Source of the DNA: Escherichia phage vB_EcoS-12210III
Direction: 5' to 3' (one strand)
Sequence record: MK907227.1
Length of the DNA: 44,219 bases
Of the stretch, positions 2,243-21,767 are shown in pieces (the first letter of the stretch is position 1; each line of letters starts with the position of its first letter). Below the pieces are notes generated by a model. That model was given only the letters and a program-made list of their open reading frames with translations, did not search any database and was not told the DNA's origin. Position numbers and translations under genes: made by a program.

Positions 2243-2266
2243 AGCCCTCGCTTGAGGGCTTTTTTT
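2243..2266 (+). terminator. Intrinsic terminator (stem AGCCCTC/GAGGGCT, T-run), followed by a TATAAT at 2281-2286 upstream of the small terminase gene
   Basis: GC-rich hairpin plus T6 read from sequence. Confidence 0.6.
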
Positions 2267-2309
2267 CGTCTCCAATATGGTATAATCTGACCTCAACAAA
2301 GGAGGATTT

Positions 2310-2816
2310 ATGAGTAAAGCAGCACTAAAGATGGGTGAGGGAAATTTCAAGGCGCTATACAACAAGAAGTATGGCGATATTGCCATGGTGGCAATCAACC
2401 GCAAGTACACACCAGAGGAGGTCTTCAATTTCGCCGTTCGATACTTCTCCTGGGCAGAGAGTGAGGCAATTAAGGCAATTGAGACAGCAGCTTTCCAGGG
2501 CGTTGTTAGTGAAAACCTTGTACACAAGCCGCGCGTGTTCACATTAACCGGGTTGGCGCTCTTCATGGGTGTCAACATCAATAGATTCGCACGCTGGCGT
2601 ACTGAGGCTGGGTACTCTGATGTGATGGAATTTATTGATAACGTAATCTACGAGCAGAAGTATCAGCTTGGCGTTGCGGGTATCATCAACTCCACAATCG
2701 TTGGTAAAGAACTTGGCATTGATAAGCCGCAGGAGATTAAGATTAGCAACAACTCCACAGCTAACGACGTTGATAGTATGAAGGAGGCGCTGGAGTCCGT
2801 GATTAGCAAGTTATAA
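2310..2816 (+). CDS. Terminase small subunit (putative)
   Basis: 168-aa ORF with strong RBS (AAAGGAGG) immediately upstream of the large terminase gene; assignment mainly by position and size. Confidence 0.55.
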   Translation: MSKAALKMGEGNFKALYNKKYGDIAMVAINRKYTPEEVFNFAVRYFSWAESEAIKAIETAAFQGVVSENLVHKPRVFTLTGLALFMGVNINRFARWRTEAGYSDVMEFIDNVIYEQKYQLGVAGIINSTIVGKELGIDKPQEIKISNNSTANDVDSMKEALESVISKL

Positions 2817-2834
2817 CAATAAGAGGGTATAACA

Positions 2835-4409
2835 ATGAGTGATGTTTTAGTTTGGGAGGAGCTATCCCAATCAGAAAAGCAAGCCATCAGGCTTCTTTCC
2901 ACGCATAACTTCGAGACATTCCTTCGGGTATGGTTCAGCCTGACACAGGGCCAGAAGTACATCATGAACTGGCATCACAGGTATCTTTGCAGGATAGTTG
3001 ACGAGATTATTAGCGGAGATCGAAAGGATACAATCATAAACGTATCGCCTGGCGCCGGTAAAACCGAGATCACATCCATCCACTTTCCAGTTTATAGCTA
3101 TCTAAAACTACCAAAAGTGCGAAATCTTAGCCTTTCGTTCTCTGATAGCCTGGTTAAGCGAAACTCTAAGCGAGTGCGCGACCTAATTAAGTGCAAGGAG
3201 TTTCAGGAGCTATTCCCTAGCAAGTTTGGCACGTGCAAGGATGATGAGATTCAGGTTCTCGATGAGTCAGGCAAGGTTCGCTTTGAGTCGATATCAAAAG
3301 CTATCGGAGGCCAGATTACAGGTTCACGTGGCGGCTACATTACTGACACCTATAGTGGTTGCCTTATGCTGGATGATGTAGATAAGGTTGATGACATGTT
3401 TAGCAAGGTTCGCCGAGAGTCGGTTCATATGCTCCTGAAGAACACCATTCGCTCTCGTAGGGCTAGCTCGGTCAAGGGTAAGGCCACACCAATTATTTCC
3501 ATACAGCAGCGATTGCATGTTAACGACTCAAGTTGGTTCATGGCTGAATCTGGAGGTATGGGGATAGACTTCGATGTGGTGAAGATTCCGGCGATAGTTA
3601 CTGAGGATTACATCGACACACTTCCTGACTGGTTAAAACCACACTTCGAGGCTGACGTTCTATCTAGTGAGTACATCGAGCGAGATGGTGTTAAGTACTA
3701 CAGCTACTACCCACAAAAGGAATCCATTCATGATTTAATGGCTATGCAAGACGCAGACCCATACACGTTCGCAAGTCAATATATGCAAAGCCCCATAGCT
3801 CTAGGTGGCAACATGGTGGATACGGATTGGTTTATACGTTACGGTGGAGATTTGCGAGCGCCATTGAAGTATGATTACCGATTTATTACTGCGGATACCG
3901 CGCTTACCACGAAGTCGTACAGTGACTTTAGTGTATTCCAGCTGTGGGGAGTAAAAGACAGAAAGCTATACCTTCTTGATATGGTTAGGGGTAAGTATGA
4001 AGCGCCCGAGCTTGAGGCTACCTTGCTAGAGTTTGAATCCAATGCGAGAAAGACTAATCGGGAGGAGGGTATTCTTCGGAAGGTAATCATCGAGAAGAAA
4101 GCATCTGGTATCGGTCTGATTCAATCTGCAAGCAGGGTTATGCGTACACCTATTGAGCCATTTATACCAGATACAGATAAAGTTACCAGAGTGCTGTCAG
4201 CAATGCCTCAGATTAAGGCTGGAAATGTAATGATTCCAGAATCGGCGCCGTGGATGAGTGCATTCATCTCTGAGTTTTCAGCATTTACAGCAGACATGAG
4301 CCACCGCCATGATGACATTGTAGATACAACAACAATGGCAATAAACTGCGAGCTAAACCTTGCAGATGACCCTAAATCGCGGATGTTACGCCTCGCAGGA
4401 ATTAAATAA
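2835..4409 (+). CDS. Terminase large subunit
   Basis: 524 aa; N-terminal P-loop (VSPGAGKTE), C-terminal nuclease-like region with conserved acidic residues; canonical position before the portal gene. Confidence 0.85.
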   Translation: MSDVLVWEELSQSEKQAIRLLSTHNFETFLRVWFSLTQGQKYIMNWHHRYLCRIVDEIISGDRKDTIINVSPGAGKTEITSIHFPVYSYLKLPKVRNLSLSFSDSLVKRNSKRVRDLIKCKEFQELFPSKFGTCKDDEIQVLDESGKVRFESISKAIGGQITGSRGGYITDTYSGCLMLDDVDKVDDMFSKVRRESVHMLLKNTIRSRRASSVKGKATPIISIQQRLHVNDSSWFMAESGGMGIDFDVVKIPAIVTEDYIDTLPDWLKPHFEADVLSSEYIERDGVKYYSYYPQKESIHDLMAMQDADPYTFASQYMQSPIALGGNMVDTDWFIRYGGDLRAPLKYDYRFITADTALTTKSYSDFSVFQLWGVKDRKLYLLDMVRGKYEAPELEATLLEFESNARKTNREEGILRKVIIEKKASGIGLIQSASRVMRTPIEPFIPDTDKVTRVLSAMPQIKAGNVMIPESAPWMSAFISEFSAFTADMSHRHDDIVDTTTMAINCELNLADDPKSRMLRLAGIK

Positions 4410-4421
4410 GCGTGATAAACT

Positions 4422-4445
4422 AGCCCCGTGTATGGGGCTTTTTTA
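4422..4445 (+). terminator. Terminator-like hairpin (AGCCCC-GTGTAT-GGGGCT, T-run) between the terminase and portal genes
   Basis: Hairpin plus T6; overlaps the GTG-initiated extension of the portal ORF in the track. Confidence 0.5.
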
Positions 4446-4457
4446 TTGGAGAAAAAC

Positions 4458-5726
4458 ATGGTCAAGACAGACAGCTACGCCAATATCTTTCTAGGCGGCA
4501 GTGATGGTAGTGAGATTTACGGGAGCTTGCAGAGCCAAGCCCCTACAATTCTAGCTTCGCTTTATGCGGATAATGCGCTGGTGCGTCGAATAATCGACAC
4601 AATCCCGGAAACAGCATTAGCGGCAGGATTCCACATTGATGGAATTGATGATGAGCCTGCATTCTGGTCGCGCTGGGACTACCTAGAACTAACAAAGCAC
4701 ATCAATGAAGCCTGGTCATGGGCGAGATTGTTCGGCGGTTCTGCCATTGTCGCTATCGTTAAGGACAATAGGGCGCTAACAAGTCCGGTCAGAGAAGGCG
4801 CTGAACTTGAAACTGTTCGCGTTTACGACCGTACGCAGGTAAAAGTCCAGACTCGCGAGGAGAACCCACGCAACGCGCGTTTTGGTAAGCCACTAACCTA
4901 TCGCATCACAACTAATGAGAGCGATATGTTCTATGATGTGCACTACAGCCGCATTCACATCATTGACGGAGAGCGAATTCCTAACGTAATGCGTCGGCAG
5001 AATGATGGCTGGGGCCGCAGCGTTCTCTCCAGTGACATTCTTGACTCAATTAAGGATTACACCAACTGCGAACTACTTGCTACGCAGTTACTGAAGCGCA
5101 AGCAGCAGGCGGTGTGGAAAGCCAAGGGTCTTGCTGAATTGTGTGATGATAGCGAAGGATTTGGCGCTGCAAGATTGCGCCTAGCTCAGGTTGATAACAA
5201 TAGTGGCGTTGGTCAGGCAATTGGCATTGACGCAGAGTCTGAAGAATACAGTGTTCTGAACTCTGATATTGGCGGGATTGATGCGTTCCTGGATAAGAAG
5301 TTCGACAGAATCGTTGCGCTGAGCGGTATTCATGAGATTATCCTGAAGAACAAGAACGTTGGCGGCGTATCATCAAGTCAGAACACCGCATTGGAGACAT
5401 TCCATAAGCTAGTCGATCGCAAGCGTAACGCTGAACTACTGCCGATTCTCGGGTTCCTGATTCCGTTCATTTCAGACGAGCAAGAATGGTCAGTGGAGTT
5501 TAATCCCCTAGCGCAGGAATCAAGTAAGGATAAGGCCGAGATTCTTGAGAAGAACGTAAACAGCATCGCGACGCTAATTGCATCTGGCGCTATGGATATT
5601 GACGAAGCGAGAGATACATTGCGCGCAATCGCTCCAGAGGTTAAGATTAGTGACGGTTCAGTAGAGACAGAGGTGACGATTAGTGAAACCAGTAACGACC
5701 CGCTGGAAGTATCCGCAGATAATTGA
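4458..5726 (+). CDS. Portal protein
   Basis: About 422 aa directly after the large terminase; start set to ATG 4458 (RBS GGAG) rather than GTG 4428, which lies inside the hairpin. Confidence 0.75.
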   Translation: MVKTDSYANIFLGGSDGSEIYGSLQSQAPTILASLYADNALVRRIIDTIPETALAAGFHIDGIDDEPAFWSRWDYLELTKHINEAWSWARLFGGSAIVAIVKDNRALTSPVREGAELETVRVYDRTQVKVQTREENPRNARFGKPLTYRITTNESDMFYDVHYSRIHIIDGERIPNVMRRQNDGWGRSVLSSDILDSIKDYTNCELLATQLLKRKQQAVWKAKGLAELCDDSEGFGAARLRLAQVDNNSGVGQAIGIDAESEEYSVLNSDIGGIDAFLDKKFDRIVALSGIHEIILKNKNVGGVSSSQNTALETFHKLVDRKRNAELLPILGFLIPFISDEQEWSVEFNPLAQESSKDKAEILEKNVNSIATLIASGAMDIDEARDTLRAIAPEVKISDGSVETEVTISETSNDPLEVSADN

Positions 5727-6411
5727 GAGCAAGGTTAACCGCAATCTCAGCATTGCGGTAACTGAGTTAATTTCAGCAATGAAGGATTCAGCAACAAGGC
5801 TTAGAATTGATACTGCAGAGGAGCTAGGGGAGGAGGATGGATATCTTGAGGGGATAATTTCTGCATTGGTGGCGTCATTTATATCAACCATCCCGGCTAT
5901 AGGGGCGGCGATATACAGATACAATAGCTCGCAATTTCTTGTGCTTGCAATAAAGACCGGAGGAAGGTCCAATCCTAGCGTTCTGAACCTTGAGGTTAAC
6001 GGCATCAATGGTGGTGAGCCGTGGTATAATGATGACCTTAATCAGTGGATTTACACCACGGATAAGTCAGCCAGGAAGCTGCTAAATAACATCAAGGATG
6101 ATTTCTTACAGGCGGCTGCAACAATACAGAATGGTGACTACGTTAAGTTATCCGATAGGTACAAAACATACAGGAAGCGAACGGCAAATATTGCATCTGG
6201 AATTGTCTCTAGTCTCAACTCGACACTGATGAGGCGTAGGCTTGAGGATGCTGGTGTTAGCCGTTACATCTGGCATGGCATGTTAGATGATAGGGAGCGT
6301 CAGTCTCACATAGCAAGAGAAGGTCTTAGCTTTAAACTTGGTGGTAACGATATATTTCCAGGTCAAGAATACGGCTGTCGTTGCTGGTCGGTTCCAGATT
6401 GGGAATCATAA
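5683..6411 (+). CDS. Head morphogenesis protein (Mu F / SPP1 gp7-like minor head protein)
   Basis: 242 aa after the portal, overlapping its 3' end; C-terminal motif region (WHGMLDDRERQSH...CRCW) typical of MuF-like proteins; position. Confidence 0.6.
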   Translation: MKPVTTRWKYPQIIESKVNRNLSIAVTELISAMKDSATRLRIDTAEELGEEDGYLEGIISALVASFISTIPAIGAAIYRYNSSQFLVLAIKTGGRSNPSVLNLEVNGINGGEPWYNDDLNQWIYTTDKSARKLLNNIKDDFLQAAATIQNGDYVKLSDRYKTYRKRTANIASGIVSSLNSTLMRRRLEDAGVSRYIWHGMLDDRERQSHIAREGLSFKLGGNDIFPGQEYGCRCWSVPDWES

Positions 6412-6423
6412 TAGGAGAATTAA

Positions 6424-7512
6424 ATGAGCAAAATCCGCTATGACAGCGCAAAGTTCAAGGCGACAATCGACGAGAATGGATTTCTAGTCGACACACCAGT
6501 AGTCGCACGCCTAGGCGTGCAAGTCTACTACATGGAAGACGGTCGAACGGTTCGAGAGTTTCGCCCAGCCGAGGAAGTCTTCAAGGATGAATCCCTCGCT
6601 AGTTACCAGGGTAAGCCAATGACTCTTGATCATGTTTTCGTTAACTCAGAGAACGCTAAAGAGGTAGTGGTAGGTTCCGTTACTGGCAAAGCTGAGCCAT
6701 TGGGTAGCTCAGTGGTTGCTCCGATTGTTGTTTACGATAACACAGCCATTCAGGAAGCTATGGCAGGTAACGCCAAGGAGTTATCCGTTGGTTACTATGC
6801 AATTCTTGACGAAACCCCTGGCTGGGGCGACCCCATTACTGGCGAGTACGTCCTTAAATCTGATGGTGATCAATTCGATGCGCCAGAAGGATGGCAGGAG
6901 TTCGACGCAATTCAGCGTGACATTAAAGTGAACCATCTCGCAATGGTGTATAGAGGTCGCGCAGGTATTGCCAAATTGAATATGGACGGTGAGCAGGAAA
7001 ACCCGTATACTACTGACGTTGATATCAATAAAGAGGATAAACATGAAATGACAGTTAAAATTAAACTCGACGGCGCGCAGGAATTTGAGGTCGCCCCGGA
7101 AATCGCCTCTCACATCGAAGCACTGAACGCAAAGGCTGACACCGCAATCGCTGAGCGCGATGCACTGAAAGCCAAGGTAGATGCAATGCCTGCTGAAATC
7201 GAAGCTGCCGTGGCTAAAGCGAAAGCTGACGCTGATGCCCTTGCCGCCCTGGTTGCTGTTGCTGCTGAAGCTGGTGTTAAGGCTGACGGTATGGATGCTA
7301 AAGGCATTAAAGTTGCTTACGTTAAAGAAGTCTCCGGCCTTGATGTTTCCGAGAAGTCTGACGCATACATCGACGCAGCGTTCGACATTGCCAAAGAATC
7401 TGATAAAATGGCTGAAATACGTAAAGCGACTACCGCTTCCGACAAATATGACAGCGCCGATGAGCCTAAGAAATTAGACCCGCGTGCTCGTTTAGCTAAA
7501 ATTAAGAAATAA
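6424..7512 (+). CDS. Scaffolding / prohead core protein
   Basis: 362 aa; C-terminal Ala/Lys/Glu-rich predicted coiled coil (AEIEAAVAKAKADADALAAL); sits between the MuF-like and capsid genes. Confidence 0.55.
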   Translation: MSKIRYDSAKFKATIDENGFLVDTPVVARLGVQVYYMEDGRTVREFRPAEEVFKDESLASYQGKPMTLDHVFVNSENAKEVVVGSVTGKAEPLGSSVVAPIVVYDNTAIQEAMAGNAKELSVGYYAILDETPGWGDPITGEYVLKSDGDQFDAPEGWQEFDAIQRDIKVNHLAMVYRGRAGIAKLNMDGEQENPYTTDVDINKEDKHEMTVKIKLDGAQEFEVAPEIASHIEALNAKADTAIAERDALKAKVDAMPAEIEAAVAKAKADADALAALVAVAAEAGVKADGMDAKGIKVAYVKEVSGLDVSEKSDAYIDAAFDIAKESDKMAEIRKATTASDKYDSADEPKKLDPRARLAKIKK

Positions 7513-7524
7513 GGAGTTATAAAC

Positions 7525-8034
7525 ATGGCAATTCGTTCCGTAGCACTGGCTGGTATGATTTCTGATACTTCGCTCTATAACATCGACGGTGCTTGTGTGG
7601 TTGGCGGTGCAGCACCAATTCCGGTTGGCACTTTTGTTGGCGTTACATCCGCTCAGCCTGTAGATGGTCACAAGGTTGTTGGACTCCCAGCTGTAACTGG
7701 CTCGCCAGTTAAACCTTATGGTGTTGTTGTTAAATCTCATTACGAGACTCCAGATGGCACAGCTCGCGTAAATGAAGCGGTTAACGTAATGACTCATGGT
7801 CGAATCTGGGTTCGTACAAATCTAGCGGCTGCGCCAGCTTTTGGTGGCAAGGTTTTCGTAAACGCGAGTGGCGTTGTTGTTGCAGAAGCGGCAGGTTCTA
7901 CTTGGGAGACTGGTTTTACATTTGCTGGTGGTTACATCAAAAAAACGGGCACAGACCCGCAAGACCTAAGCGTTGATGGCGCACTAGTTGAAGTTCAGCT
8001 TATTCAATCCGCAGACTCAACTGTTGCAGCTTAA
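7525..8034 (+). CDS. Head-associated structural protein (possible decoration or minor capsid protein)
   Basis: 169 aa, Gly/Val/Thr-rich, strong RBS (AAGGAG); placement between scaffold and capsid genes. Function uncertain. Confidence 0.4.
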   Translation: MAIRSVALAGMISDTSLYNIDGACVVGGAAPIPVGTFVGVTSAQPVDGHKVVGLPAVTGSPVKPYGVVVKSHYETPDGTARVNEAVNVMTHGRIWVRTNLAAAPAFGGKVFVNASGVVVAEAAGSTWETGFTFAGGYIKKTGTDPQDLSVDGALVEVQLIQSADSTVAA

Positions 8035-8050
8035 TAATTAAGATATATAA

Positions 8051-8075
8051 AGCCTCCTTCGGGAGGTTTTTTTTA
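8051..8075 (+). terminator. Intrinsic terminator (CCTCC-TTCG-GGAGG, T8), followed by a sigma70-like promoter (TTGCGT 8081-8086, TATAAT 8103-8108) upstream of the capsid gene
   Basis: Read from sequence. Confidence 0.6.
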
Positions 8076-8146
8076 TGTCATTGCGTGGGCTAAAAACTCG
8101 TGTATAATGAATCCGTAAACACATAACTGAAAAGGAACAATAAAGA

Positions 8147-9091
8147 ATGGCCATTAAATTTGATGCAGAACAAGCAAAAATCACCGCTCACCTCGAGCAA
8201 ATGGGCGTAGAAAAAGCTGATGCCGCTGGTATCTGGACTGTTAGCCAGCTTACCGCTGCTCTGAACCGTGCTTACGAAAAAGAATACGCAGAAAACTCAG
8301 TTGTTAATATCTTCCCTGTAACAAATGAAATTCCTGGTCACGCGAAGTATTTCGAGTACCCAGAATTTGATGGTGCTGGCATTGCTCAGATTATCGCTGA
8401 TTACTCTGACGACTTGCCGCTGGTTGATGCGTTTATGAACGAGAAACAAGGCAAAGTGTTCCGTTTCGGTAACGCATTCCTGATTTCTATTGATGAAATT
8501 AAAGCTGGCGCCGCAACTGGTCAGTCCCTGTCAACTCGCAAGCAAGCCCTGGCTTTCGAAGCGCACGACAACCTGCTGGATAAACTGGTGTGGTCTGGTT
8601 CCGCCCCGCACGGCATCGTGAGCGTATTCGACCAGCCGAACATCAACAACGTTGTTGCAACTCCAAGTTGGAATATTCCGGACAACGCAATCGGTGATAT
8701 CACCGAGATGATTGACGCAGTTGAGACTTCAACACAGGGCCTCCATCATGTGACTGACATTCTGCTTCCGGCCTCTGCTCGTCGAATTATGCAGCAACTG
8801 GTTCCGCAGACAAATTTGAGCTACGGTGAACTGTTCACTCGTAACAACCCAGGTTTGACCATTCGTTTCTTGCAGTTCCTGGACAACTACGATGGTGCGA
8901 ATGGTAAGGCTGCTCTGGCGTTTGAGAAGAGTCCACTCAATATGTCTATCGAGATTCCGGAAGCTACCAACGTTCTTCCAGGACAACCTAAGGACTTGCA
9001 CTTTAAGTACCCTGTAACATCAAAAGCTACAGGTTTGATCGTTTATCGCCCTCTGACGATGGCCGTAATCAAAGGTATTACCTTAATCTAA
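8147..9091 (+). CDS. Major capsid protein
   Basis: 314 aa with its own promoter and terminators either side (high-expression unit) in the head module. Confidence 0.7.
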   Translation: MAIKFDAEQAKITAHLEQMGVEKADAAGIWTVSQLTAALNRAYEKEYAENSVVNIFPVTNEIPGHAKYFEYPEFDGAGIAQIIADYSDDLPLVDAFMNEKQGKVFRFGNAFLISIDEIKAGAATGQSLSTRKQALAFEAHDNLLDKLVWSGSAPHGIVSVFDQPNINNVVATPSWNIPDNAIGDITEMIDAVETSTQGLHHVTDILLPASARRIMQQLVPQTNLSYGELFTRNNPGLTIRFLQFLDNYDGANGKAALAFEKSPLNMSIEIPEATNVLPGQPKDLHFKYPVTSKATGLIVYRPLTMAVIKGITLI

Positions 9092-9097
9092 TAAATG

Positions 9098-9120
9098 GCC
9101 CTCTTCGGAGGGCTTTTTTT
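9098..9120 (+). terminator. Intrinsic terminator (GCCCTC-TTCG-GAGGGC, T7) after the capsid gene
   Basis: Read from sequence. Confidence 0.65.
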
Positions 9121-12813: not shown

Positions 12814-15789
12814 ATGGCAACAAATGAATTAGCCGGAATCACACTAGCCGTAGACGTATCGCAAGTAGACAGGGGTACGCAGTCCCTACAAAAGTTCAGG
12901 CAGGCAAACCAGCAGGCTGCTTCCGGTATTAGTGAGTTCGTCAACGCTGAGCAGGTTGCTAAAAACCAGGCTAGAGACACGGCTCGCGCACTTGCTGAAC
13001 AGCAAGCATCTTTGGCTAAATTGCAAACGGCTATTGACCCAACTGCGGCAAAGTTCCGTAAGCTGCAAGAGGCAGCGGTAGGTCTTGATAAGGCATTCGC
13101 GGCTGGCGTAGTTCCTGATGAGGAGTTTTTCCGCTTAGGTGAGGCGCTTGAAACGCAGAACGCAAAACTTGCTCGTTCACGTGCGGCACTAACTGAAGAG
13201 GGTAGAGCGGCAGCGCAAGCTGCAAAGGATAAGGCAAAGGCAAAGGCTGAAGCGGATAGATTCATTGCATCACTTGAGCGTCAGGCTCAAGCGGCAACAT
13301 TGACGCGTGAGGAGTACTTAAAATTACAGGCTGCTCAGCTTGGCGTAAGTTCTCAGGCAGCGCCTATTATTGACAGAATCGCCGATGCATCACAGAAGGC
13401 AAACACCCAGCTAATTGCTCAGAGCAAGGCCTTTCAACGCTCTGGCTTAAGCGCAGGCCAATACAAGGCTGCAATCTCTCAATTGCCAGCGCAGATTACA
13501 GATATTGGGACATCACTTGCTGGCGGCATTCCGATTTGGCTTATTGCAATTCAGCAAGGCGGACAAATTAAGGATGCATTTGGAGGTATTGGTAACACCT
13601 TTAGATTCGCGCTTGCAGCCTTAAATCCATTCAATGTTGCTGTTGGGGTTTTGGGTGGCGCGCTTGTTGCTCTAGGTATCGGTGCTGCCCAGGCAGAGAG
13701 TGAATTCAGAGCATTAAATTCTGCCATTGCGTTCTCAAACAACTCCACAATCGCATCAATCTCGCAGGTTAGAGAGTTGGTTAGCTCTGTTTCTGATGCT
13801 ACTGGTGCAACCAGAGGACTTGTGACTAGCATCGCAACAAGCCTTATTGAGCAAGGGAACCTTACGCTGACGCAGATTGACAAGATTACTAAATCTACCG
13901 CCAGATGGGCGCAGTTGACAGGTAAGGATGCAAAGGAAATTACTGGTTACTATAACCAGATTGCGAGCGACCCAATTCAAGGACTTGCTGATTTAGACAA
14001 GAGGTTTAACTTCCTTACTCAGGGGCAGTTAACAACAATTGAAAGATTGAGAGAGACTAGGGGTGAGGTTGAAGCCGTAACTGCTGCTATTGATATATTT
14101 AGCAAATCACAGGAAGCAAACCTTAACGATATTGCAGCCCAGCTTACTCCTCTTGAATTGGCCTGGAATGACTTCAGGAAGTACATATCTGATGTATGGG
14201 ATGCGATTAGTCGCAGAACGGTTGGGGCGCTAAACCTGTTTGTTGATGTAATAGCCGGGACAATTGAACAGATTAAGGTCTTCATTAACCAAGGTGACGC
14301 GCTGATTGGTGAGTTTGTAATTAGTGCAACTCAGGCATTGCAGAATATCCCAGGCCTTGATGGTGTCGGTGATGATGTAATCAAGAGTCAGCAGAAGATT
14401 ATCGATGCCGCCAAGAAGCAAAACCTTGAGCTAGAGAAGTCTATCAGGGAGAGAGATGCCAGAATCAGAGAGGGAGAACTTGGTTACGTTACACGCAGGG
14501 AAAATCAGAATTCCAATGAGCAATCAGGTACTGATGAGGAGTTTGCAAAAAGGAAGAAGGCGCTTCAGGATGAACTTGATGCGATCAAGAAGAGCAGGAA
14601 AGAAGAAAATGGTAGGGTTAAAGAGCAAAGAGACCTTACAATTGGTTACGAATCTGGCGTGTTGGCGCTCCAGGCTCAGCTCAAGGTTCTTCAGGAAAAC
14701 AGGGATATCGGCGCGGTAATAAGCAATGAGCGCAAGCAGTATCTTCAGGAGGTTGCCAAATTCCAGATTCTTGAGCAGAGGCAACTTGATGGCTCAATTA
14801 CCAAAGAGCAAGCAAGACTTCTCATTGAAAAGGATAAAGTTCTTGAGCTGGCAAGACAGAAGGCTGAGCTAGGTGATCAGATTGCTTTGCAGGAGCGAGC
14901 TAATAAGTTGGCTGAAGATAACCGCAAGAAGATTCTTCAGATTAACAATGAGGCAAGCAATATTAATTTGGGTACTGGACTATCATCTCGTGAACTGCAA
15001 AGAGCCAAAGAGATTCAGGCTCTTCAGTCCAATCAGGTCAATGCTGGTGGCTCTCTTGATGATGTTGATTTTCAGCAATTGCTGGAAGCAAGAAAGGAAT
15101 ACTACAAGCAAGAGGATAATCTTAGGTCAGACTGGCAATCCGGTGTAATATCCACTCTCGCTGACTTGACAGATAAGTACACTGACTACAACCAGATTGC
15201 TAAGGACTTAACCGTTGCGGCATTTGACGGGATAACAGAGCAAATTACAAACCTTGTAACCACTGGTGAGACCAATTTTAGGGAGTTCACAGCAAGCATC
15301 CTCAAAATGATTGCCAAGATTGCAACTCAGCTTCTTATTGTCAAGGCTATTGAGTCCAGTTTAAGTAGCTTCGGCGGTACTGGCGGCGCCTTTGGTTCAA
15401 TTGCTTCTGGCCTGGGTTTTGCTGGTGGCGGCTATACTGGCAATGGTGGTAAGTATCAGCCAGCAGGAACGGTGCACCGCGGTGAGTTTGTATTCACAAA
15501 AGAAGCGACTAGCAGAATTGGTGTTAAGAACCTTTACGCACTAATGAAGGGTTACGCAAATGGCGGTGTTGTTGGTGGCCCTTCTGGTTATGCAAATGGT
15601 GGTTTGGTTTCTGGTGGAGCAGATGTTAATGTTAGTGGTATCACTGTTAACGTAAACTCGGGTGTAGGTAGCGACCCAGAACAAGCTAAGGCACTGCAAA
15701 GCGGAGTCAAGGCTATCGTAGCCGAAGAGATTGCTCAGTCCTTCCAGCAGGGTGGTAGGGCGTATGCCTACCTTCGTGGATTCAACTAA
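12814..15789 (+). CDS. Tail tape measure protein
   Basis: 991 aa, long Ala/Gln/Glu-rich predicted helical region, C-terminal Gly-rich repeats (GYANGGVVGG / GYANGGLVSGG); follows the chaperone pair. Confidence 0.9.
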   Translation: MATNELAGITLAVDVSQVDRGTQSLQKFRQANQQAASGISEFVNAEQVAKNQARDTARALAEQQASLAKLQTAIDPTAAKFRKLQEAAVGLDKAFAAGVVPDEEFFRLGEALETQNAKLARSRAALTEEGRAAAQAAKDKAKAKAEADRFIASLERQAQAATLTREEYLKLQAAQLGVSSQAAPIIDRIADASQKANTQLIAQSKAFQRSGLSAGQYKAAISQLPAQITDIGTSLAGGIPIWLIAIQQGGQIKDAFGGIGNTFRFALAALNPFNVAVGVLGGALVALGIGAAQAESEFRALNSAIAFSNNSTIASISQVRELVSSVSDATGATRGLVTSIATSLIEQGNLTLTQIDKITKSTARWAQLTGKDAKEITGYYNQIASDPIQGLADLDKRFNFLTQGQLTTIERLRETRGEVEAVTAAIDIFSKSQEANLNDIAAQLTPLELAWNDFRKYISDVWDAISRRTVGALNLFVDVIAGTIEQIKVFINQGDALIGEFVISATQALQNIPGLDGVGDDVIKSQQKIIDAAKKQNLELEKSIRERDARIREGELGYVTRRENQNSNEQSGTDEEFAKRKKALQDELDAIKKSRKEENGRVKEQRDLTIGYESGVLALQAQLKVLQENRDIGAVISNERKQYLQEVAKFQILEQRQLDGSITKEQARLLIEKDKVLELARQKAELGDQIALQERANKLAEDNRKKILQINNEASNINLGTGLSSRELQRAKEIQALQSNQVNAGGSLDDVDFQQLLEARKEYYKQEDNLRSDWQSGVISTLADLTDKYTDYNQIAKDLTVAAFDGITEQITNLVTTGETNFREFTASILKMIAKIATQLLIVKAIESSLSSFGGTGGAFGSIASGLGFAGGGYTGNGGKYQPAGTVHRGEFVFTKEATSRIGVKNLYALMKGYANGGVVGGPSGYANGGLVSGGADVNVSGITVNVNSGVGSDPEQAKALQSGVKAIVAEEIAQSFQQGGRAYAYLRGFN

Positions 15790-15819
15790 TTAACGGGGCT
15801 TCGGCCCCTAAGGATTTTT

Positions 15820-16170
15820 ATGGCTATTGATAAATTTACCTGGTGCACTCAAATCCAAAATGGAGGCGGCTCGTTCTCTAACACGAACAATGTGCGAATA
15901 GTTAGCTTCGGCAATGGTTACACCCAAAGGGGTACTGGTGGATACAGGAGCAACACCAGAAGCTACCAGATGACATATACCAACAAGGACTGGCGAGATG
16001 TCATGGATTTCTGCTTCAACCACATCATTACCCCGTTCTTCTGGACTACGCCGCAGGGCGACACATCCATGTTTGTTATTCAGCAGGATAGTATTAGCGT
16101 CACACCAGTCAGTAAGGAAGTTCAGACTGTAAGCATGCAATTCGTAGAAGTATTTAGTTCAATGCGTTAA
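15820..16170 (+). CDS. Minor tail protein (lambda M-like, distal tail)
   Basis: 116 aa directly after the tape measure, in the conserved M-L-K-I-J order. Confidence 0.55.
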   Translation: MAIDKFTWCTQIQNGGGSFSNTNNVRIVSFGNGYTQRGTGGYRSNTRSYQMTYTNKDWRDVMDFCFNHIITPFFWTTPQGDTSMFVIQQDSISVTPVSKEVQTVSMQFVEVFSSMR

Positions 16171-16175
16171 ACTAA

Positions 16176-16196
16176 GCCCCTATGCGGGGCTTTTTT
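16176..16196 (+). terminator. Terminator-like hairpin (GCCCC-TATGC-GGGGC, T6) inside the tail operon
   Basis: Read from sequence. Confidence 0.5.
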
Positions 16197-16209
16197 ATTG
16201 GAGAAATAT

Positions 16210-16965
16210 ATGCTAAGTCCAAAGTTTGAAAATCAGTTGCAAAGCCTTTTCCCTGGCGAGATTGTGACACTAATCCAGGTTGACGGAACCTCCTTCGGAA
16301 GTCTCGTTTACAACTTCCACAATGAGAATATTTCATACACGCCAGAAGAGATCATGCTGGCCCAGATGAATGGCGAGCCACTACCAGAGAAAACCATCAC
16401 CTTCCGCGGTGAAGAGTACGGACCTAGACCTTTCGGTATCTCGGGTATCAATATGACTTCTGACGGCAAGGCTAACAAGGTTACGTTAACGGTATCAAAC
16501 GTGGACCAGCGCATTAGCGCACTTATCCGCACATACAACGGATTGGTTAAGGCTAAGGTTACTATCTGGATTACTACGCGAGACAACATCAATGAAGACG
16601 GAAGCATTGCTGATGGGGACTATCGCAGATTCGTTTACTTCATTGAGCGACCTAAGCAGGTTGATTATAAAACCGCATCATTTGAGCTAAGTAGCCCGAT
16701 GGATATGGATGGTATTTATATCCCCGCAAGACTTGTTCAGTCTGTTTGCTACTGGGCTTCTAGGGGTTGGTATCGTAGCGGTAATGGGTGTACTTATGAT
16801 GGAAATAGATACTTTAATAAGGATGATAAGCCAGTTGATGACCCGTCTTTAGACTTCTGTGCAGGAACTGTTAACAGTTGCAAACTTAGATTTGGTGAGA
16901 ATAATCAGTTAGATTTCGGCGGCTGCGCTGCAGCAAGCCTTCAAGCTAAAGCCAACCAGAGTTAA
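16210..16965 (+). CDS. Minor tail protein (lambda L-like)
   Basis: Start set to ATG 16210 (RBS GGAG); four C-terminal cysteines (CYWAS...C...C...C) as in L-like proteins; position. Confidence 0.65.
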   Translation: MLSPKFENQLQSLFPGEIVTLIQVDGTSFGSLVYNFHNENISYTPEEIMLAQMNGEPLPEKTITFRGEEYGPRPFGISGINMTSDGKANKVTLTVSNVDQRISALIRTYNGLVKAKVTIWITTRDNINEDGSIADGDYRRFVYFIERPKQVDYKTASFELSSPMDMDGIYIPARLVQSVCYWASRGWYRSGNGCTYDGNRYFNKDDKPVDDPSLDFCAGTVNSCKLRFGENNQLDFGGCAAASLQAKANQS

Positions 16966-16975
16966 GGAGAAATAA

Positions 16976-17734
16976 ATGTTAACACCAAAAGTTAAACTTG
17001 AAATCTTTCAGCACGCAAAAGAGGATTACCCGCATGAATGCTGCGGAGTTGTCACACAAAAGGGTCGCGCTCAGAAGTATCACAGAATCACCAACGCCAG
17101 CAAAGACCCAGAGAATGAATTCCTCCTTGATTCAAATGAGTATGCTAGTGTCGCATTCAACCTAGCGGATAATGAGTCCATTGTTTACGTAGTTCACTCC
17201 CACACGGGCGATGGAGCAACAACAAGACCAAGCCCAGCGGATATCTGTAGCTGCAATGAGTGCGAGATTCCGTATGTTATTGTAAGCATCCCGGAGGGAG
17301 ATATGCGTATTCTTGAGCCATCAACGATGCCACTGATTGGTCGCCCGTGGGGGCTTGGTAGCTTTGATTGCTGGGAGTTGGTAATGGCATTCCATAAGAA
17401 ATACGGCGTCAAACTGAATGACTACCGCGTTAATTACCCGTGGTGGGAGAAGCGGTACAATGAAAATATCTATGATGACAACTGGATTAAGGAAGGATTT
17501 GAGCTGGTAAAAACTTCAGATATTCCGATTGGTTCCATGATTATGATGCAGGTGCAAAGTGAGGTGACAAACCACGCCGGAATCTACATTGGCAATAACA
17601 GATTCATTCATCACCTTTATGGTAAAATGAGTTCCGTTGATATCTACTCCGATTACTGGAGGGAGCGCACTGTGCGAATTGTTCGCCACAAGGATTTACC
17701 AGAGGATGTAATTTATGACTCAGAAGCTGATTGA
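16976..17734 (+). CDS. Tail assembly protein (lambda K-like: JAB/MPN metalloprotease plus NlpC/P60-like domain)
   Basis: N-terminal E...HSH...D motif (HECCG..., VVHSHTGD) of the JAMM type; C-terminal Cys/His region; position between the L-like and I-like genes. Confidence 0.7.
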   Translation: MLTPKVKLEIFQHAKEDYPHECCGVVTQKGRAQKYHRITNASKDPENEFLLDSNEYASVAFNLADNESIVYVVHSHTGDGATTRPSPADICSCNECEIPYVIVSIPEGDMRILEPSTMPLIGRPWGLGSFDCWELVMAFHKKYGVKLNDYRVNYPWWEKRYNENIYDDNWIKEGFELVKTSDIPIGSMIMMQVQSEVTNHAGIYIGNNRFIHHLYGKMSSVDIYSDYWRERTVRIVRHKDLPEDVIYDSEAD

Positions 17735-18287
17735 CATTAAGTTGGGCCTGTCACTAGGCCGCAGGTTTGGAAAGATTCACCAGATGGCGGTGAGTAGCGT
17801 GCCTGAAGCTATGCGGGCACTTTGCTCACAGATCCCTGCGTTCAAGGAGTTCATGAATAGCCATGTAGGTCAAAACACCAGATATGCTATTTTTGTGGAT
17901 GGTAAAAATGTGAACGAGCATCGAATAGCTGATTTTAGTGCCGTTCAGGAGATACGCATCTTACCAATCCCTCAAGGCCGTAAGTCTGGCGGGCTTTTTC
18001 AGACTATTTTAGGCGCCGCTCTTATCACGGTTGGCATCTTTACCGGGCAGATTTATCTTGTTGGCGCTGGTGTTTCTCTGGCTGCTGGCGGTATTGCCCA
18101 GCTACTTTCACCTCAAGCAACTGGATTAAAGACGCAGGACAACCAAACAAGCAACCGCGCCTCTTACGCATTTGGCTCAGCTGTAAACACTGTAGCCGCT
18201 GGTTATCCTGTTTGCCTACCTTATGGTTATCGAACGGTTGGCGGTTCGGTATTTAGTGCTGGCAGTTATTCCGAAGACATTGCTTAA
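17715..18287 (+). CDS. Tail assembly protein (lambda I-like)
   Basis: 190 aa with hydrophobic C-terminal half; overlaps the K-like gene end; position before the J-like gene. Confidence 0.55.
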   Translation: MTQKLIDIKLGLSLGRRFGKIHQMAVSSVPEAMRALCSQIPAFKEFMNSHVGQNTRYAIFVDGKNVNEHRIADFSAVQEIRILPIPQGRKSGGLFQTILGAALITVGIFTGQIYLVGAGVSLAAGGIAQLLSPQATGLKTQDNQTSNRASYAFGSAVNTVAAGYPVCLPYGYRTVGGSVFSAGSYSEDIA

Positions 18288-18295
18288 ACATCATA

Positions 18296-18316
18296 CCCGC
18301 CTAGTGCGGGTTTTTT
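18296..18316 (+). terminator. Terminator-like hairpin (CCCGC-CTAGT-GCGGG, T6) before the J-like gene
   Basis: Read from sequence. Confidence 0.5.
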
Positions 18317-18367
18317 ATTTAGTGTAGAATGGCACAAATGATCAAAACAAACATGAGGCTTTGTGAT

Positions 18368-21300
18368 ATGGCTGAAGATATTAAGATTTATGGTGCTAAA
18401 GGTGGTAGCCAGAAGCAGCATCAACCAGTTGAGCAGGAAGACAACCTTATTTCATTAAACAAGGTTAAGGTGTTGCTTGCGGTTGCTGACGGAGAGGTGG
18501 ATTCAAACTTCTCAATGAAGGATTTATACCTTGCTGACGTTCCGGTACAAAATCAGGATGGTAGTTACAACTATGAAGGTGTTCGCGCTGAGTTCCGTGC
18601 TGGCACGCAGTATCAGGACTATATCGCTGGCCTTGATGGTGCCAACTCAGAAATTCAGGTATCAAGGGAAATCAAAAACGATACCCCGCACATCATTGCG
18701 GTTAACAATAATCAGCTATCAGCGATTCGTGTAAAGCTATATTGGCCCAGACTGGTTAAGCAAGAGAGTAACGGTGACCTGAACGGGACAACCTGCGAGT
18801 ATGCAATTGACCTTTCTGTTAATGGTGGAGCTTACCAGGAATACACTCGAGGAGTTGCTAACGGGAAGACAACAACTGGTTACGACCGCAGCATTCGTGT
18901 AAATCTTCCTGCTGAATTTGATAGCGCATTGGTTCGCATCCGTAAGATCACACCAGACTCAACAAGTAGCACCCTGGTTAACGGAATGCAGATCACAACC
19001 TATCAGGAGGTAATCGACGCTAAATTCCGATATCCGCTTACGGCCCTGGTTTATGTTGAGTTCGGCTCTGACCTTTTCCCTAACGGGATTCCAACAATCT
19101 CAATCAAGAAGAGGTGGAAGCTGATTCAGGTCCCAACTAACTACGACCCTGAAACCAGAACTTACAGCGGGACATGGAACGGTTTGTTCAAGATGGCATG
19201 GTCAAATAACCCAGCGTGGGTTCTTTATGACTTGGTGACAAACCGCCGATATGGTCTTGACCAGCGAGAGCTAGGTGTAGAGATTGATAAATGGGGGCTG
19301 TACGAAGCCGCGCAATTCTGCGACCAGATGGTTCCTGATGGTAAGGGTGGTTTAGAGCCTCGTTATCTTTGCGATATGGTTGTCCAGAATAAAGCTGAGG
19401 CTTACACGCTAATTCGTGATATCTGTTCAATCTTCCGTGGCCTAACCTTCTATGACGGTGAAAAGATTGGCGTCGTGGTTGATAAGCCTCGTAATCCATC
19501 TTACATCTTCACGAATGATAACGTTGTTAATGGATTGTTCAGTCGCACATTTGCCAGCGATAAGAGCCTTTACACTACTGCTAACGTCCAGTTTGATGAT
19601 GTAGAGAACAACTATCAACAAGATGTAGAGCCGGTATTTGAATTAGAGGCAACTCGTCGTTTTGGATTTAACCCTGTAGATTTAACTGCGATTGGCTGTA
19701 CTCGCAGAAGTGAAGCAAACAGACGTGGTAGGTGGCTCCTTAAAACCAATCTGAGAAGCGAAACTATTAGCTTCACTACCGGGTTGGAAGGCATGATTCC
19801 GATGATTGGAGAGGTTATTGCGGTTAATGACGCAGCATGGTCGAGCAACTATCAGTTAAACCTTTCCGGTCGCATTGAGTCAGTTCAGGGATTGCAGGTT
19901 TTTACCCCGTTTAAAGTTGACGCAGCTCCAGGTGACAGAATTCTTCTGAACAAACCCGACGGAAGCCCGGAGGCAAGAACTATTGCAAGCGTATCTGAGG
20001 ATGGTATGACGATTAACCTGAACACGGCTTTCAGCTTTGTAGCTCAGCCTGACACTGTATTCGCAATCGATAAGGATAATCTGGCGCTTCAGCAGTATGT
20101 TGTGACCGGGATTCAAAAAGCGGATTCTGATGGTTCGGATTCATTCCAGTACACGATTACCGCAGTAGAGTATGACCCGAACAAGTATGACGAGATTGAC
20201 TACGGCGTTAACATCGTTGATCGTCCGACTTCAATCGTAGAGCCTGACAGATTGTCGCCGCCTGAGAATTTAACAGTGTCAAGCTACAGTAAGGTTGTTC
20301 AGGGCTTGTCAGTCGAGACGATGGTAATTGGCTGGGACAAGGCTCCATATGCTAAAACCTACAATGTTCAGTGGAGAAAAGAGAATGGCAACTGGATTAA
20401 CGTACCCAGAACAGCTAGCGCAGAGGTTGATATCGAAGGTATTTACGCAGGAATCTATGACGTTAGGGTTCGCAGCGTATCAGATACTGAAAACGTGTCT
20501 GCCTGGTCTGACATTGTAACTGTATCGCTAACTGGTAAGATTGGCCGCCCGTCTGCGCCTACAGTTATCACTGCATCAACTGATGAAGTATTTGGCATCC
20601 GTGTTAAATGGGGATTTCCTGAAGGATCTGGTGATACTGCTTACACTGAACTTCAGCAGGTTCCTGATAATGGTGACGGTACTTATAATCCTGATAACGC
20701 AAGTTTGCTGACTTTACTGCCTTATCCAGCCTATGAATACTGGCACACACCAATTCAGCCAGGAAAGGTTATCTGGTATCGCGCAAGATTGATTGACAGA
20801 ATCGGTAACACATCTGATTGGTCTAATTTCGCAAGAGGCATGAGTACTGACGACGCCAATATTATCAATGATTACATCAAGGTTGATATTGAGGGCTCGG
20901 AAGGATTCAAATACCTCGAGCAGAATGCGATTCAAAAGAATCAGGACATTCAGAACCAGGCAGAATCAATCCTTCAGAACGCATTGGCTAATGACACTGA
21001 TGTTCGTCGTATGACTAAGGAGAACGGCAAACGTAAGGCTGAATATGTTCAGGCTGTTAATCTCATAGCCGATGAAACTCAGGCGCGCGTAGAGGCTCTC
21101 ACACAGCTTAAGGCGCAGATAGATGATGAAGTTGTAGCGTCGATTACTGAAGTTCAGACTGCATTAGCCACAGAGACAGAAGCAAGGACTACAGCAGACA
21201 CGGCTCTATCAGCAAGGCTCGGTGAAAACGAGGCGGCTCTAAACCAGAAATTAGACGCATTCTCTAATGCCACATCAACTGGAGTGCAGTACGGAATTAG

Positions 21301-21739
21301 CCTTGGCCTGAAATACAATGGGCAGACTTATTCATCCGGCATGAGTATGGAGCTTGTTGGCACTGGTGGTAATGTTCGTAGTCAATTCATTTTTGACGCA
21401 AACAGATTCGCAATCAGTAACGGCATTGGTTCTGGTTCCGGTCAGTGGCAACTCCCCTTCGTTGTAGAGAACGGAAACGTAATCATCCAAAGTGCGGTAA
21501 TTGGCGATGGCTCAATTACTAACGCGAAGATTGGTGACTTTATTCAGTCCAGCAACTACGTAGCAGGAAGCACAGGCTGGAGGATTGATAAGTCTGGTAA
21601 CGCTGAGATTCGCGGTAAACTGTACGCCAACAGTGGTGAGTTCGCATTCAACGGAATAAATAATACGGTACAGATTAACGGAAACGGAATCACGGTTAAC
21701 TTACCTGGAGGGGGAAGAGTTGTGGTAGGTACGTTCTAA
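18368..21739 (+). CDS. Central tail fiber / tip attachment protein (lambda J-like host-specificity protein)
   Basis: Clear similarity to lambda J over the N-terminal and central regions as I recall them (e.g. IQVPTNYDPETRTYSGTWNG / DKWGLYEAAQFCDQMVPDGKGG / AIGCTRRSEANRRGRWLLKT); about 1123 aa from ATG 18368 (alternative start ATG 18329). Confidence 0.9.
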   Translation: MAEDIKIYGAKGGSQKQHQPVEQEDNLISLNKVKVLLAVADGEVDSNFSMKDLYLADVPVQNQDGSYNYEGVRAEFRAGTQYQDYIAGLDGANSEIQVSREIKNDTPHIIAVNNNQLSAIRVKLYWPRLVKQESNGDLNGTTCEYAIDLSVNGGAYQEYTRGVANGKTTTGYDRSIRVNLPAEFDSALVRIRKITPDSTSSTLVNGMQITTYQEVIDAKFRYPLTALVYVEFGSDLFPNGIPTISIKKRWKLIQVPTNYDPETRTYSGTWNGLFKMAWSNNPAWVLYDLVTNRRYGLDQRELGVEIDKWGLYEAAQFCDQMVPDGKGGLEPRYLCDMVVQNKAEAYTLIRDICSIFRGLTFYDGEKIGVVVDKPRNPSYIFTNDNVVNGLFSRTFASDKSLYTTANVQFDDVENNYQQDVEPVFELEATRRFGFNPVDLTAIGCTRRSEANRRGRWLLKTNLRSETISFTTGLEGMIPMIGEVIAVNDAAWSSNYQLNLSGRIESVQGLQVFTPFKVDAAPGDRILLNKPDGSPEARTIASVSEDGMTINLNTAFSFVAQPDTVFAIDKDNLALQQYVVTGIQKADSDGSDSFQYTITAVEYDPNKYDEIDYGVNIVDRPTSIVEPDRLSPPENLTVSSYSKVVQGLSVETMVIGWDKAPYAKTYNVQWRKENGNWINVPRTASAEVDIEGIYAGIYDVRVRSVSDTENVSAWSDIVTVSLTGKIGRPSAPTVITASTDEVFGIRVKWGFPEGSGDTAYTELQQVPDNGDGTYNPDNASLLTLLPYPAYEYWHTPIQPGKVIWYRARLIDRIGNTSDWSNFARGMSTDDANIINDYIKVDIEGSEGFKYLEQNAIQKNQDIQNQAESILQNALANDTDVRRMTKENGKRKAEYVQAVNLIADETQARVEALTQLKAQIDDEVVASITEVQTALATETEARTTADTALSARLGENEAALNQKLDAFSNATSTGVQYGISLGLKYNGQTYSSGMSMELVGTGGNVRSQFIFDANRFAISNGIGSGSGQWQLPFVVENGNVIIQSAVIGDGSITNAKIGDFIQSSNYVAGSTGWRIDKSGNAEIRGKLYANSGEFAFNGINNTVQINGNGITVNLPGGGRVVVGTF

Positions 21740-21743
21740 AACA

Positions 21744-21763
21744 AAAGCCCCGAAAGGGGCTTT
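21744..21763. terminator. Bidirectional terminator hairpin (AGCCCC-GAAA-GGGGCT) between convergent genes
   Basis: Perfect hairpin flanked by A-run and T-rich sequence. Confidence 0.6.
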
Positions 21764-21767
21764 ATAT

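Follow-up and report, generated by a model that had tools for sequence, protein, structure and literature searches.

Conserved intergenic hairpins with T-tracts punctuate the late region of the T1-like Escherichia phage vB_EcoS-12210III

The late region of Escherichia phage vB_EcoS-12210III (positions 2243–21764 of record MK907227.1, whose full 44,219 nucleotides are called the window here) is punctuated by G+C-rich hairpins, nearly all of them followed by a T-tract. Judged from sequence and its conservation, these hairpins probably serve as intrinsic (Rho-independent) terminators of the host type and split the late region into nested transcription modules, as in the "transcripton" model of phage T1. 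A terminator-punctuated late region is already annotated in T1-like phages, and the arrangement is genuine but ordinary; new here are its quantification across the family, the split between promoter-bearing and terminator-only junctions, and the recognition of the CGTCT pentamer as part of a conserved box next to the T-run. With RefSeq names, the gene order is a small hypothetical gene (gp30), terS, terL, portal, head-morphogenesis protein, protease, gp24 (decoration/scaffold-like), major capsid protein (MCP), gp22, four connector/neck genes, major tail, gp16, two chaperones, tape measure protein (TMP), M, L, K, I and J.

Hairpins were checked in three ways, by a terminator scan, by a separate scan with ViennaRNA energies and by individual folds. 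Every hairpin listed in an earlier sequence-only reading of the window was present and folded as claimed, with coordinates off by 1–3 nt; one more, at 9436–9453 after gp22, had been missed. The eleven elements, with their predicted roles and, where relevant, the ribosome-binding site (RBS) that follows, are:

2243–2266 (stem 2243–2260), plus strand: predicted terminator before terS, AGCCCTC/GCTT/GAGGGCT, T7; −12.5 kcal/mol.
4422–4444 (stem 4422–4439), plus strand: predicted terminator after terL, AGCCCC GTGTAT GGGGCT, T6 running into the portal RBS GGAG (4448–4451).
8049–8074 (stem 8049–8070), plus strand: predicted terminator after gp24, AAAGCCTCC TTCG GGAGGTTTT, T-run of 8; z −4.4.
9097–9120 (stem 9097–9114), plus strand: predicted terminator after MCP, GGCCCTC TTCG GAGGGCT, T7; z −4.15.
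9436–9462 (stem 9436–9453), plus strand: predicted terminator/attenuator after gp22, AGGGCGC TTCG GCGTCCT, weak tail TTTATTGTA, then the gp21 RBS.
11752–11774 (stem 11752–11771), plus strand: predicted terminator after major tail, AAACCCTC TTCG GAGGGTTT, T6; z −4.75.
12777–12802 (stem 12777–12794), plus strand: predicted terminator/attenuator overlapping the chaperone stop codon, AACCCGC TTCG GCGGGTT, tail TTCTATTAT, then the TMP RBS.
15795–15808, plus strand: hairpin between the TMP stop and the M RBS, GGGGC TTCG GCCCC; no T-tract, by sequence not a terminator.
16174–16196 (stem 16174–16192), plus strand: predicted terminator after M, AAGCCCC TATGC GGGGCTT, T6, then the L RBS GGAG.
18295–18330 (stem 18295–18311), plus strand: predicted terminator after I and putative −10 of J, ACCCGC CTAGT GCGGGT, T6; −10 TAGAAT at 18325–18330.
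21744–21763, both strands: predicted bidirectional terminator between the convergent J and gp07, AAAGCCCC GAAA GGGGCTTT; −14.4 kcal/mol.

All eleven fold as single G+C-rich hairpins with stems of 5–9 bp and ViennaRNA minimum free energies between −9.7 and −14.4 kcal/mol. The z-scores lie between −2.9 and −4.75, apart from that of 15795–15808 (z −1.75), which the sequence-only reading had correctly described as a hairpin only, lacking a T-tract. A T-rich tail (at least 5 T in 8) follows the other ten (those starting at 2243, 4422, 8049, 9097, 9436, 11752, 12777, 16174, 18295 and 21744), interrupted at 9436 and 12777. The loop is a C-G-closed TTCG in 6/11 and GAAA in 1/11, the others being GCTT, GTGTAT, TATGC and CTAGT. 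The hairpin observation is real and far above chance: the plus strand of 2000–22000 holds 10 elements with a free energy of −8 kcal/mol or lower and at least 5 T in 8, against 1.31±1.33 (maximum 5) in 100 dinucleotide shuffles, and a looser scan found 34 against 16.2±5.4. All 10 T-tailed elements are intergenic, in about 4% of the span, lie 0–45 nt 3′ of stop codons and are co-oriented with the genes. The first of them separates the upstream block of small genes and a tRNA from the packaging and structural genes.

Conservation was assessed across the Drexlerviridae, to which the phage belongs (Braunvirinae, Veterinaerplatzvirus). Bases 2000–22000 matched about 40 GenBank records of vB_EcoS-2004V/12210I, each 44,219 bp, at 100% identity by megablast; the window is a whole T1-like siphophage genome near Rtp, with BEK1-1, Rtp, IME253 and SU57 at 85–91% identity and the Rogunavirinae and T1 more distant. 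Homologues of 21–23 late proteins were located in nine annotated phages and in 80 IMG/VR loci, the latter fetched by their MCP protein (50 to 95% identity) with 10-kb flanks; single-protein searches of IMG/VR with major tail, L and terL gave only close relatives, and the MCP-flank search was used instead. A terminator was called at a junction when a hairpin with a T-tract lay between −15 and +60 nt of the stop codon, with the following counts of family loci:

After gp24: 70/76, with 21 stem types.
After MCP: 80/80, 2–22 nt 3′ of the stop, with 16 stem types.
After gp22: 52/54.
After major tail: 73/74, with 12 stem types.
After chaperone T: 73/73, with 5 stem types.
After M: 68/70, with 13 stem types.
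After I: 60/62.
After terL: 29/75, extra genes often being inserted at the site.
Control junctions: head-morphogenesis 0/71, protease 0/79, gp20 0/78, tail completion 0/77, tail terminator 1/77, chaperone G 0/74, L 0/67.

Terminator-positive junctions thus carry 5–21 distinct stem sequences apiece; those after MCP include GCCCTC, AGCACCC, ATAGCGCC, AGAATGGCCC, AAAAAGCGCC, GGGGAATCC, AGGGAACC and AGCCTCAC. The pre-terS hairpin is unchanged in five close relatives, and at least four different stems occupy the same junction family-wide, while BEK1-1, TR2, AHP42 and T1 have differing stems at the place equivalent to the one after terL. Median T-runs across the family are 5–7, and the post-I stem with its TA(G/T)AAT is recognisable as far as T1. 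Base pairing is also kept by substitution on both strands of a stem. In a seven-row alignment of the post-M hairpin, pair 4 is C-G in five phages, G-C in TR2 and A-U in AHP42, and 98% of cells are paired against 61–82% when the partner is slid by one column. Retention of position and structure while the stem sequence turns over is the signature of a functional RNA hairpin.

These patterns bear on the view that the hairpins are chance palindromes or recombination linkers with no transcriptional role. Near-identical units do occur at different junctions: the terL (4422–4455) and M (16174–16207) terminators are near-duplicates including the RBS, with AGCCCC-loop-GGGGCTTTTTTATTGGAGAAA in common, and BEK1-1 has after terL exactly the hairpin that SU57 has after M, which suggests that terminator units have been copied or exchanged between junctions. 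HNH endonuclease genes and other extra genes are also inserted at several junctions in relatives. A chance or linker origin is nevertheless very improbable given the enrichment, the strand bias, the strictly intergenic placement and the T-tract on the sense side, together with the preservation of structure rather than sequence across clades.

Five junctions combine the predicted terminator with a candidate restart promoter. They lie before terS and MCP and after MCP, major tail and I, with spacers of 80–112 bp in this phage, each of which contains a −10 hexamer that begins within 14–47 nt of the terminator and is the best-kept block of its spacer in alignments, where the flanks diverge. The internal promoters that the sequence-only reading had offered as one route to the distal genes are in keeping with these conserved hexamers after five terminators. 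Besides the J −10 given above, the candidates are:

2278–2286 (TATAAT 2281–2286), plus strand: putative extended −10 for terS/terL, TGGTATAAT, invariant in alignments.
8081–8108, plus strand: putative MCP promoter, TTGCGT-N16-TATAAT (TATAAT 8103–8108).
9149–9154, plus strand: putative promoter −10, TATAAT, for gp22 and downstream genes.
11780–11839, plus strand: putative promoter cassette for gp16 and the chaperones, with repeat ATGGCACTTTTTGCTAAAG at 11780–11798, −10 TATAGT at 11818–11823 and leader box CATCGAAACGA at 11829–11839.

Family-wide, the pre-terS extended −10 is conserved as TGGTATAAT/TGGTATACT. TTGCG-N17-TATAAT before MCP is invariant in five Braunvirinae, TATAAT at 9149–9154 is the sole invariant spacer block across seven phages including Rogunavirinae, and the J hexamer TAGAAT is TATAAT in T1. 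Spacers with a −10-like hexamer were counted 3′ of major tail (61/73 loci), M (56/66) and I (51/51). The restart promoters show no convincing −35, because the T-run or hairpin occupies that position; they look like promoters of the extended −10 type that abut the terminator, several with a TGn extension.

The same evidence helps to weigh a second explanation, in which the hairpins mainly serve as barriers for mRNA 3′-end stability or processing, read-through is nearly total and half-life differences set the stoichiometry. The extra-stable C(UUCG)G loop in 6/11 hairpins would suit such a role, as would TTCG being the most frequent loop family-wide at three junctions, the weak tails TTTATTGTA and TTCTATTAT, and the fact that read-through is obligatory at several sites (see below). 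The hairpin at 15795–15808 has no T-tract and is still kept with a compensatory change, GGGGC/GCCCC becoming GTGGC/GCCAC in TR2 (G-C to U-A). This TMP-M hairpin is retained in Braunvirinae and Rogunavirinae, whereas Tunavirinae and most other loci have no intergenic gap there; the family-wide count of 46/66 "hairpin only" calls after TMP reflects hairpins within coding sequence. Yet a T-tract stands at the stem foot in 10/11 hairpins and is kept family-wide, which an exonuclease barrier would not need, and restart promoters after five hairpins make sense only if transcription stops there to a substantial extent. RNase III-type sites, with about 20 bp or more of interrupted double-stranded RNA, do not match stems of 5–9 bp. 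We regard a predominantly stabilizing role as unlikely.

The remaining junctions have the predicted terminator only. After gp22, the chaperone, M and terL, the T-tract of this phage leads directly into the next Shine-Dalgarno sequence (as in TTTTTATTGGAGAAA-ATG), and the gp22 and chaperone hairpins stand 17–20 nt from the next start codon, too short a distance for a promoter at gp22. Family-wide, these gaps measure about 20 nt (about 21 nt at gp22), and the spacer contains a −10 in 0/42 sequences after the chaperone and in 4/50 after gp22. A −10-like hexamer (at least 5/6) just 5′ of the hairpin was present in 0/35 unique family sequences at gp22 and 1/29 at the chaperone, and in 18/23 at terL. 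In this phage, the terL element is:

4413–4421, plus strand: extended −10-like TGATAAACT, directly 5′ of the terL terminator stem; TATAAT in T1.

TGATAAACT is a possible terminator-bypass promoter for the portal gene: a transcript starting there would begin inside the hairpin, which could then not form, so that termination would be escaped. As a general substitute for read-through, such a bypass −10 was dropped, being frequent only after terL. Since the essential connector, tail and tape measure genes can be reached only through the gp22 and chaperone hairpins, read-through is logically required; the sequence-only reading had named it among its options, and with no −10 between hairpin and start or just upstream it is obligatory after gp22 and the chaperone.

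Read-through could also come from efficient terminators combined with phage-encoded processive antitermination of an unrecognised type, functionally like lambda Q, the put RNA of HK022 or P4 Psu. Such a system would fit a co-oriented stretch of 19.5 kb that holds ten terminators and has essential genes 3′ of terminator-only junctions; it would also fit the roughly 25 small early proteins that carry no assigned function and the conserved box (RYGYCYG, described below) that adjoins the first late promoter in all subfamilies. We scanned 30 non-structural proteins against PHROGs, ten of them also against Pfam, and found no match to a Q-, N- or Psu-like antiterminator family; an Rfam scan at gathering thresholds gave no antitermination RNA, only a tRNA-Arg. 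The regulator matches were a Cro/C2-like gp34, a Rha-type "anti-repressor" gp05 and a winged-helix gp04, and other matches were to replication and recombination enzymes. As far as these profiles reach, the statement of the sequence-only reading that no antiterminator gene could be identified still stands. Restart promoters would moreover be redundant if antitermination were efficient, and we consider this explanation quite improbable.

Several observations weigh against division of the region by intrinsic terminators. The terL and M terminators, with T6 and stems of −11 to −12 kcal/mol, look efficient, and efficient terminators at terminator-only junctions would starve essential genes unless something lowers termination. 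T-run length does not distinguish promoter-bearing from terminator-only junctions family-wide; weaker T-tracts at the latter were considered as an explanation and dropped, as the trend is confined to this genome. The −35 hexamers are poor, and a sigma-70 scan was not enriched (26 against 30.4 expected) and missed the restart promoters. The conserved hairpin at 15795, without a T-tract, indicates that at least one conserved hairpin works differently. Finally, no 3′-end, 5′-end or coverage data for any Drexlerviridae phage were found in the literature searched.

With these points in mind, we still favour host-type termination. What the sequences show directly is the hairpins and their positions, conservation of place across the family while stems turn over, the conserved −10 boxes and the need for read-through; actual termination and its efficiency, promoter activity and a stoichiometric purpose are inferred. 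The host sigma-70 RNA polymerase would presumably transcribe the whole late region. At the five promoter-bearing junctions, strong terminators with restart promoters would isolate terS-terL, MCP, gp22 to major tail, the chaperone-TMP-tip block and J. The terminator-only hairpins after gp22, the chaperone, M and probably terL would be partial terminators or attenuators, with the downstream genes fed by the read-through fraction, which would produce a step-down within modules, for example from chaperone to TMP or from M to L-K-I. Each of the high-copy products (gp24, MCP and major tail) comes from the gene that immediately precedes a terminator; this agrees with a role in dosage and would give the arrangement a stoichiometric purpose. 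At terminated 3′ ends, the C(UUCG)G hairpin should also shield the transcript from 3′ exonucleases, so that dosage would combine termination with stability.

The sequence-only reading had further singled out a CGTCT box directly after two of the hairpins, each copy being followed by TATAAT. Both copies are real:

2267–2271, plus strand: CGTCT box, as T7-CGTCT at 2260–2271, directly after the T-run; TATAAT at 2281–2286.
9121–9127, plus strand: ACGTCTG box, as T7-A-CGTCT at 9114–9126, directly after the T-run; TATAAT at 9149–9154.

They share the whole unit GCCCTC-loop-GAGGGC-T7-(A)CGTCT, and the two units (2243 and 9097) look like paralogous cassettes. A third TTTTTGCGTCT lies on the minus strand at 37489–37479, after a bidirectional terminator at 37507–37490 and inside the coding end of the opposite-strand gene. 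The pentamer is, however, not the conserved unit, and here the sequence-only reading needs correction; its hedged interpretation, which had listed read-through, antitermination, internal promoters and mRNA-stability hairpins without choosing among them, is partly supported (internal promoters, read-through, no antiterminator found). In five phages with an invariant pre-terS hairpin and T7, the letters are CGTCT, CGTAT, CGCCT, CGACT and CGTCT, and after MCP in the same phages the variants are ACGTCT, ACGCCT and TCGCCT. CGTCT was accordingly rejected as a strictly conserved motif, being also under-represented genome-wide (40 against 62 expected), and as a promoter element of fixed spacing, with 14 against 27–28 nt to the −10 and 1 or 8 nt in other subfamilies. 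A manual reading of the box or the direct repeat (described below) as a sigma-E or sigma-54 element was dropped as well; the letters are similar and the spacings unfit.

What is conserved is a longer, degenerate box, RYGYCYG or (A/G)(T/C)G(C/T)C(T/C)G, which lies 0–1 nt after the T-run at a distance fixed to the hairpin and not to the −10. After MCP, it is conserved as ACGTCTGTAC/ACGCCTGTAC in Braunvirinae and Rogunavirinae. Of 380 unique terminator tails taken from the full set of loci, 26 have a T-run, an optional nucleotide and CG[TC]C[TC]; the background rate is 0.24% per position. The 26 tails belong to unrelated hairpins (AGCCCTC-GCTT, AACCCGC-TTCG, AGCCCC-TTAATT, AACCCGCC-TTGC and AAAAGGGGGC) and to different junctions (pre-terS, post-MCP, post-I and post-major-tail). 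Before terS, every subfamily has a cassette of hairpin, T6–8, RYGYCYG, YAATNTGG or a single T, and TATAAT, and in IMG/VR the strict form of this cassette was found only on Drexlerviridae-like contigs of 46–52 kb.

The elemental pause consensus of RNA polymerase is G−10 Y−1 G+1. The last G of the stem lies exactly 9 nt before the first pyrimidine-G step in 52/61 unique pre-terS sequences, by way of five combinations of T-run and spacer, and in 19/37 post-I cassettes; the spacing is absent at most other junctions, and in the post-MCP copy of the window it is 10. A pause signal as a general feature of all the terminators was rejected because it is not supported outside the pre-terS and post-I cassettes, and for RYGYCYG a pause element is one hypothesis. 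We regard the box as genuine and conserved and so far unexplained, and found no description of it in the literature examined. Tentatively, and with considerable doubt, it might be a functional part of a terminator-promoter cassette specific to Drexlerviridae, serving as a pause or termination-position signal or as the site of a phage late factor. Such a factor, if it exists, would link the halt of transcription arriving from upstream with a new start from the neighbouring promoter, which lacks a −35.

The cassette at 11780–11839 has an architecture that recurs at about 17 other genome sites. The direct repeat ATAGCACnnnTTGCTAAAn has 19 genome copies against 1.95 expected, all co-oriented with genes, including 297, 1129, 11780, 26044, 33710, 36042, 42990 and 43496 on the plus strand and 22994, 24178, 30704, 37663, 37821, 40403 and 41049 on the minus strand. 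A −10-like hexamer stands 19–22 nt 3′ of it, and a further 5 nt separate the hexamer from the leader box CATCGAAACGA, of which there are 5 exact copies and whose A falls at the expected +1. This geometry suggests a phage promoter class with an upstream element about 5 bp farther from the −10 than a normal −35. In two minus-strand cassettes, 37839–37780 and 30722–30670, a terminator-like hairpin with a T-tract stands between the repeat and the −10 hexamer, so that the terminator of the upstream gene would be embedded in the spacer of the next promoter. The "21-nt direct repeats" of TLS, T1 and Rtp are of the ATAGCACnnnTTGCTAAAn type, and their function is given as open (PMC11447400).

Earlier annotation of T1-like phages, all of it in silico, agrees well with the hairpin inventory. 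The late modules of T1 are termed "transcriptons" (Roberts, Martin and Kropinski 2004, as summarised in PMC11447400); 21 terminators, all intergenic, are reported for TLS (PMC11447400), and 18–21 per genome by Niu et al. 2014 (PMC4070988). The re-annotated T1 record (AY216660) has rho-independent terminators before terS (L004 8322–8344), after the decoration genes, before and after MCP, and after the gp22 homologue, chaperone, M, I and J. That of AHP42 (NC_024793) places them after terL, gp07, MCP, gp11, major tail, chaperone, M and I, with a bidirectional one after J, which corresponds to the list of the sequence-only reading plus 9436, minus the pre-terS element (outside the AHP42 locus) and the TMP hairpin without a T-tract. 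The SU57 record gives terminators after MCP and J (J on both strands) and promoters after several terminators, including before terS, before MCP and after MCP. The terminators of our phage thus occupy the same syntenic junctions as in T1-like phages, as transcriptons of the T1 type would.

Differences in detail exist among these relatives. T1 belongs to the same family and has the same gene order, and its I-J stem ACCCGC..GCGGGT and −10 are recognisably homologous; its record has no terminator after terL or major tail, although our scan found hairpins there. It has no TMP-M hairpin, unlike this phage, and its post-MCP terminator runs into an RBS where this phage has a restart promoter. Before MCP, Braunvirinae have the terminator first and the promoter second, and T1 the reverse: at L004 15062–15121, an annotated promoter TTGACG-N17-TATTAT precedes an annotated terminator hairpin in the 5′ untranslated region of T1 MCP, which could be either an attenuator or a 5′ stabiliser. 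In AHP42, the post-MCP cassette AGCCCTC TTCG GAGGGCT T5 ACGTCTG is nearly identical to that of this phage, whereas the stems differ after M (AAGACCC) and after major tail (AAGCCCCT), and at the latter an extended −10 directly 3′ of the T-run replaces the direct repeat.

Comparable designs are known outside the family. In T7, the partial terminator T-phi lies right after capsid gene 10, which makes the capsid mRNA the most plentiful late transcript and leaves the genes behind it dependent on read-through. The likeness lies in a partial terminator directly after the major capsid gene, but T7 has its own RNA polymerase, a class I T7 terminator and RNase III sites for processing, whereas this phage looks host-type throughout, with stems of 5–9 bp. 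Lambda, in which a single late promoter is served by Q-modified polymerase, shares the long co-oriented head-tail operon, the tail order of chaperones G/T, H (tape measure), M, L, K, I and J, and the crossing of terminators; unlike lambda, this phage appears to have multiple internal promoters, and the scans described above found no Q-like gene or qut-like arrangement. In SPP1, siphophage late genes are bounded by intergenic stem-loop terminators, and the late promoter pairs a canonical −10 with an atypical −35 (PMC6316719). SPP1 differs in its Gram-positive host, its unrelated sequences and its dependence on an early phage factor for late transcription, nothing comparable being known for T1-like phages.

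Further observations concern the structures and ends of the genome. The same 20-mer, AAAGCCCCGAAAGGGGCTTT, is found at 21744–21763 (plus) and 27263–27244 (minus), ending the tail-fibre genes J and minus-strand gp32; each copy is at a convergent junction, and the two form a perfect inverted pair of predicted bidirectional terminators 5.5 kb apart. A hairpin, ACCGCAAT CTCAGC ATTGCGGT, at 5738–5759 lies 12 nt 3′ of the portal stop within the overlapping head-morphogenesis open reading frame; it is kept in Braunvirinae, another stem, of 9 bp, stands at the corresponding offset in AHP42, and the hairpin may be a translational coupling or regulatory structure. A tRNA-Arg(TCT) gene at 1923–2000 shares the strand of gp30 and the first late terminator, just 5′ of both, and follows a 274-bp non-coding stretch (1649–1922). 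Positions 1–127 of the window equal 44093–44219 letter for letter, with no match at other lengths, which resembles a k-mer overlap that assembly software left at the ends of a circular or permuted contig, the true genome then being 44,092 bp. Such an overlap would account for the 127-nt offset from the coordinates of NC_049813 and for sister records that are all 44,219 bp in different permutations.

In practical terms, regulatory features are missing from all of the roughly 40 GenBank records of this phage, and the terminator/promoter grid that its late region has in common with T1 could be transferred to them by synteny. The family-wide counts provide a map of the junctions that always have a terminator, those that have a restart promoter and those that force read-through, which should be useful for Term-seq and for the engineering of T1-like or BASEL-type phages. 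More broadly, RYGYCYG and the −35-less promoters bear on how a phage with neither its own polymerase nor a known antiterminator may time and dose its late genes.

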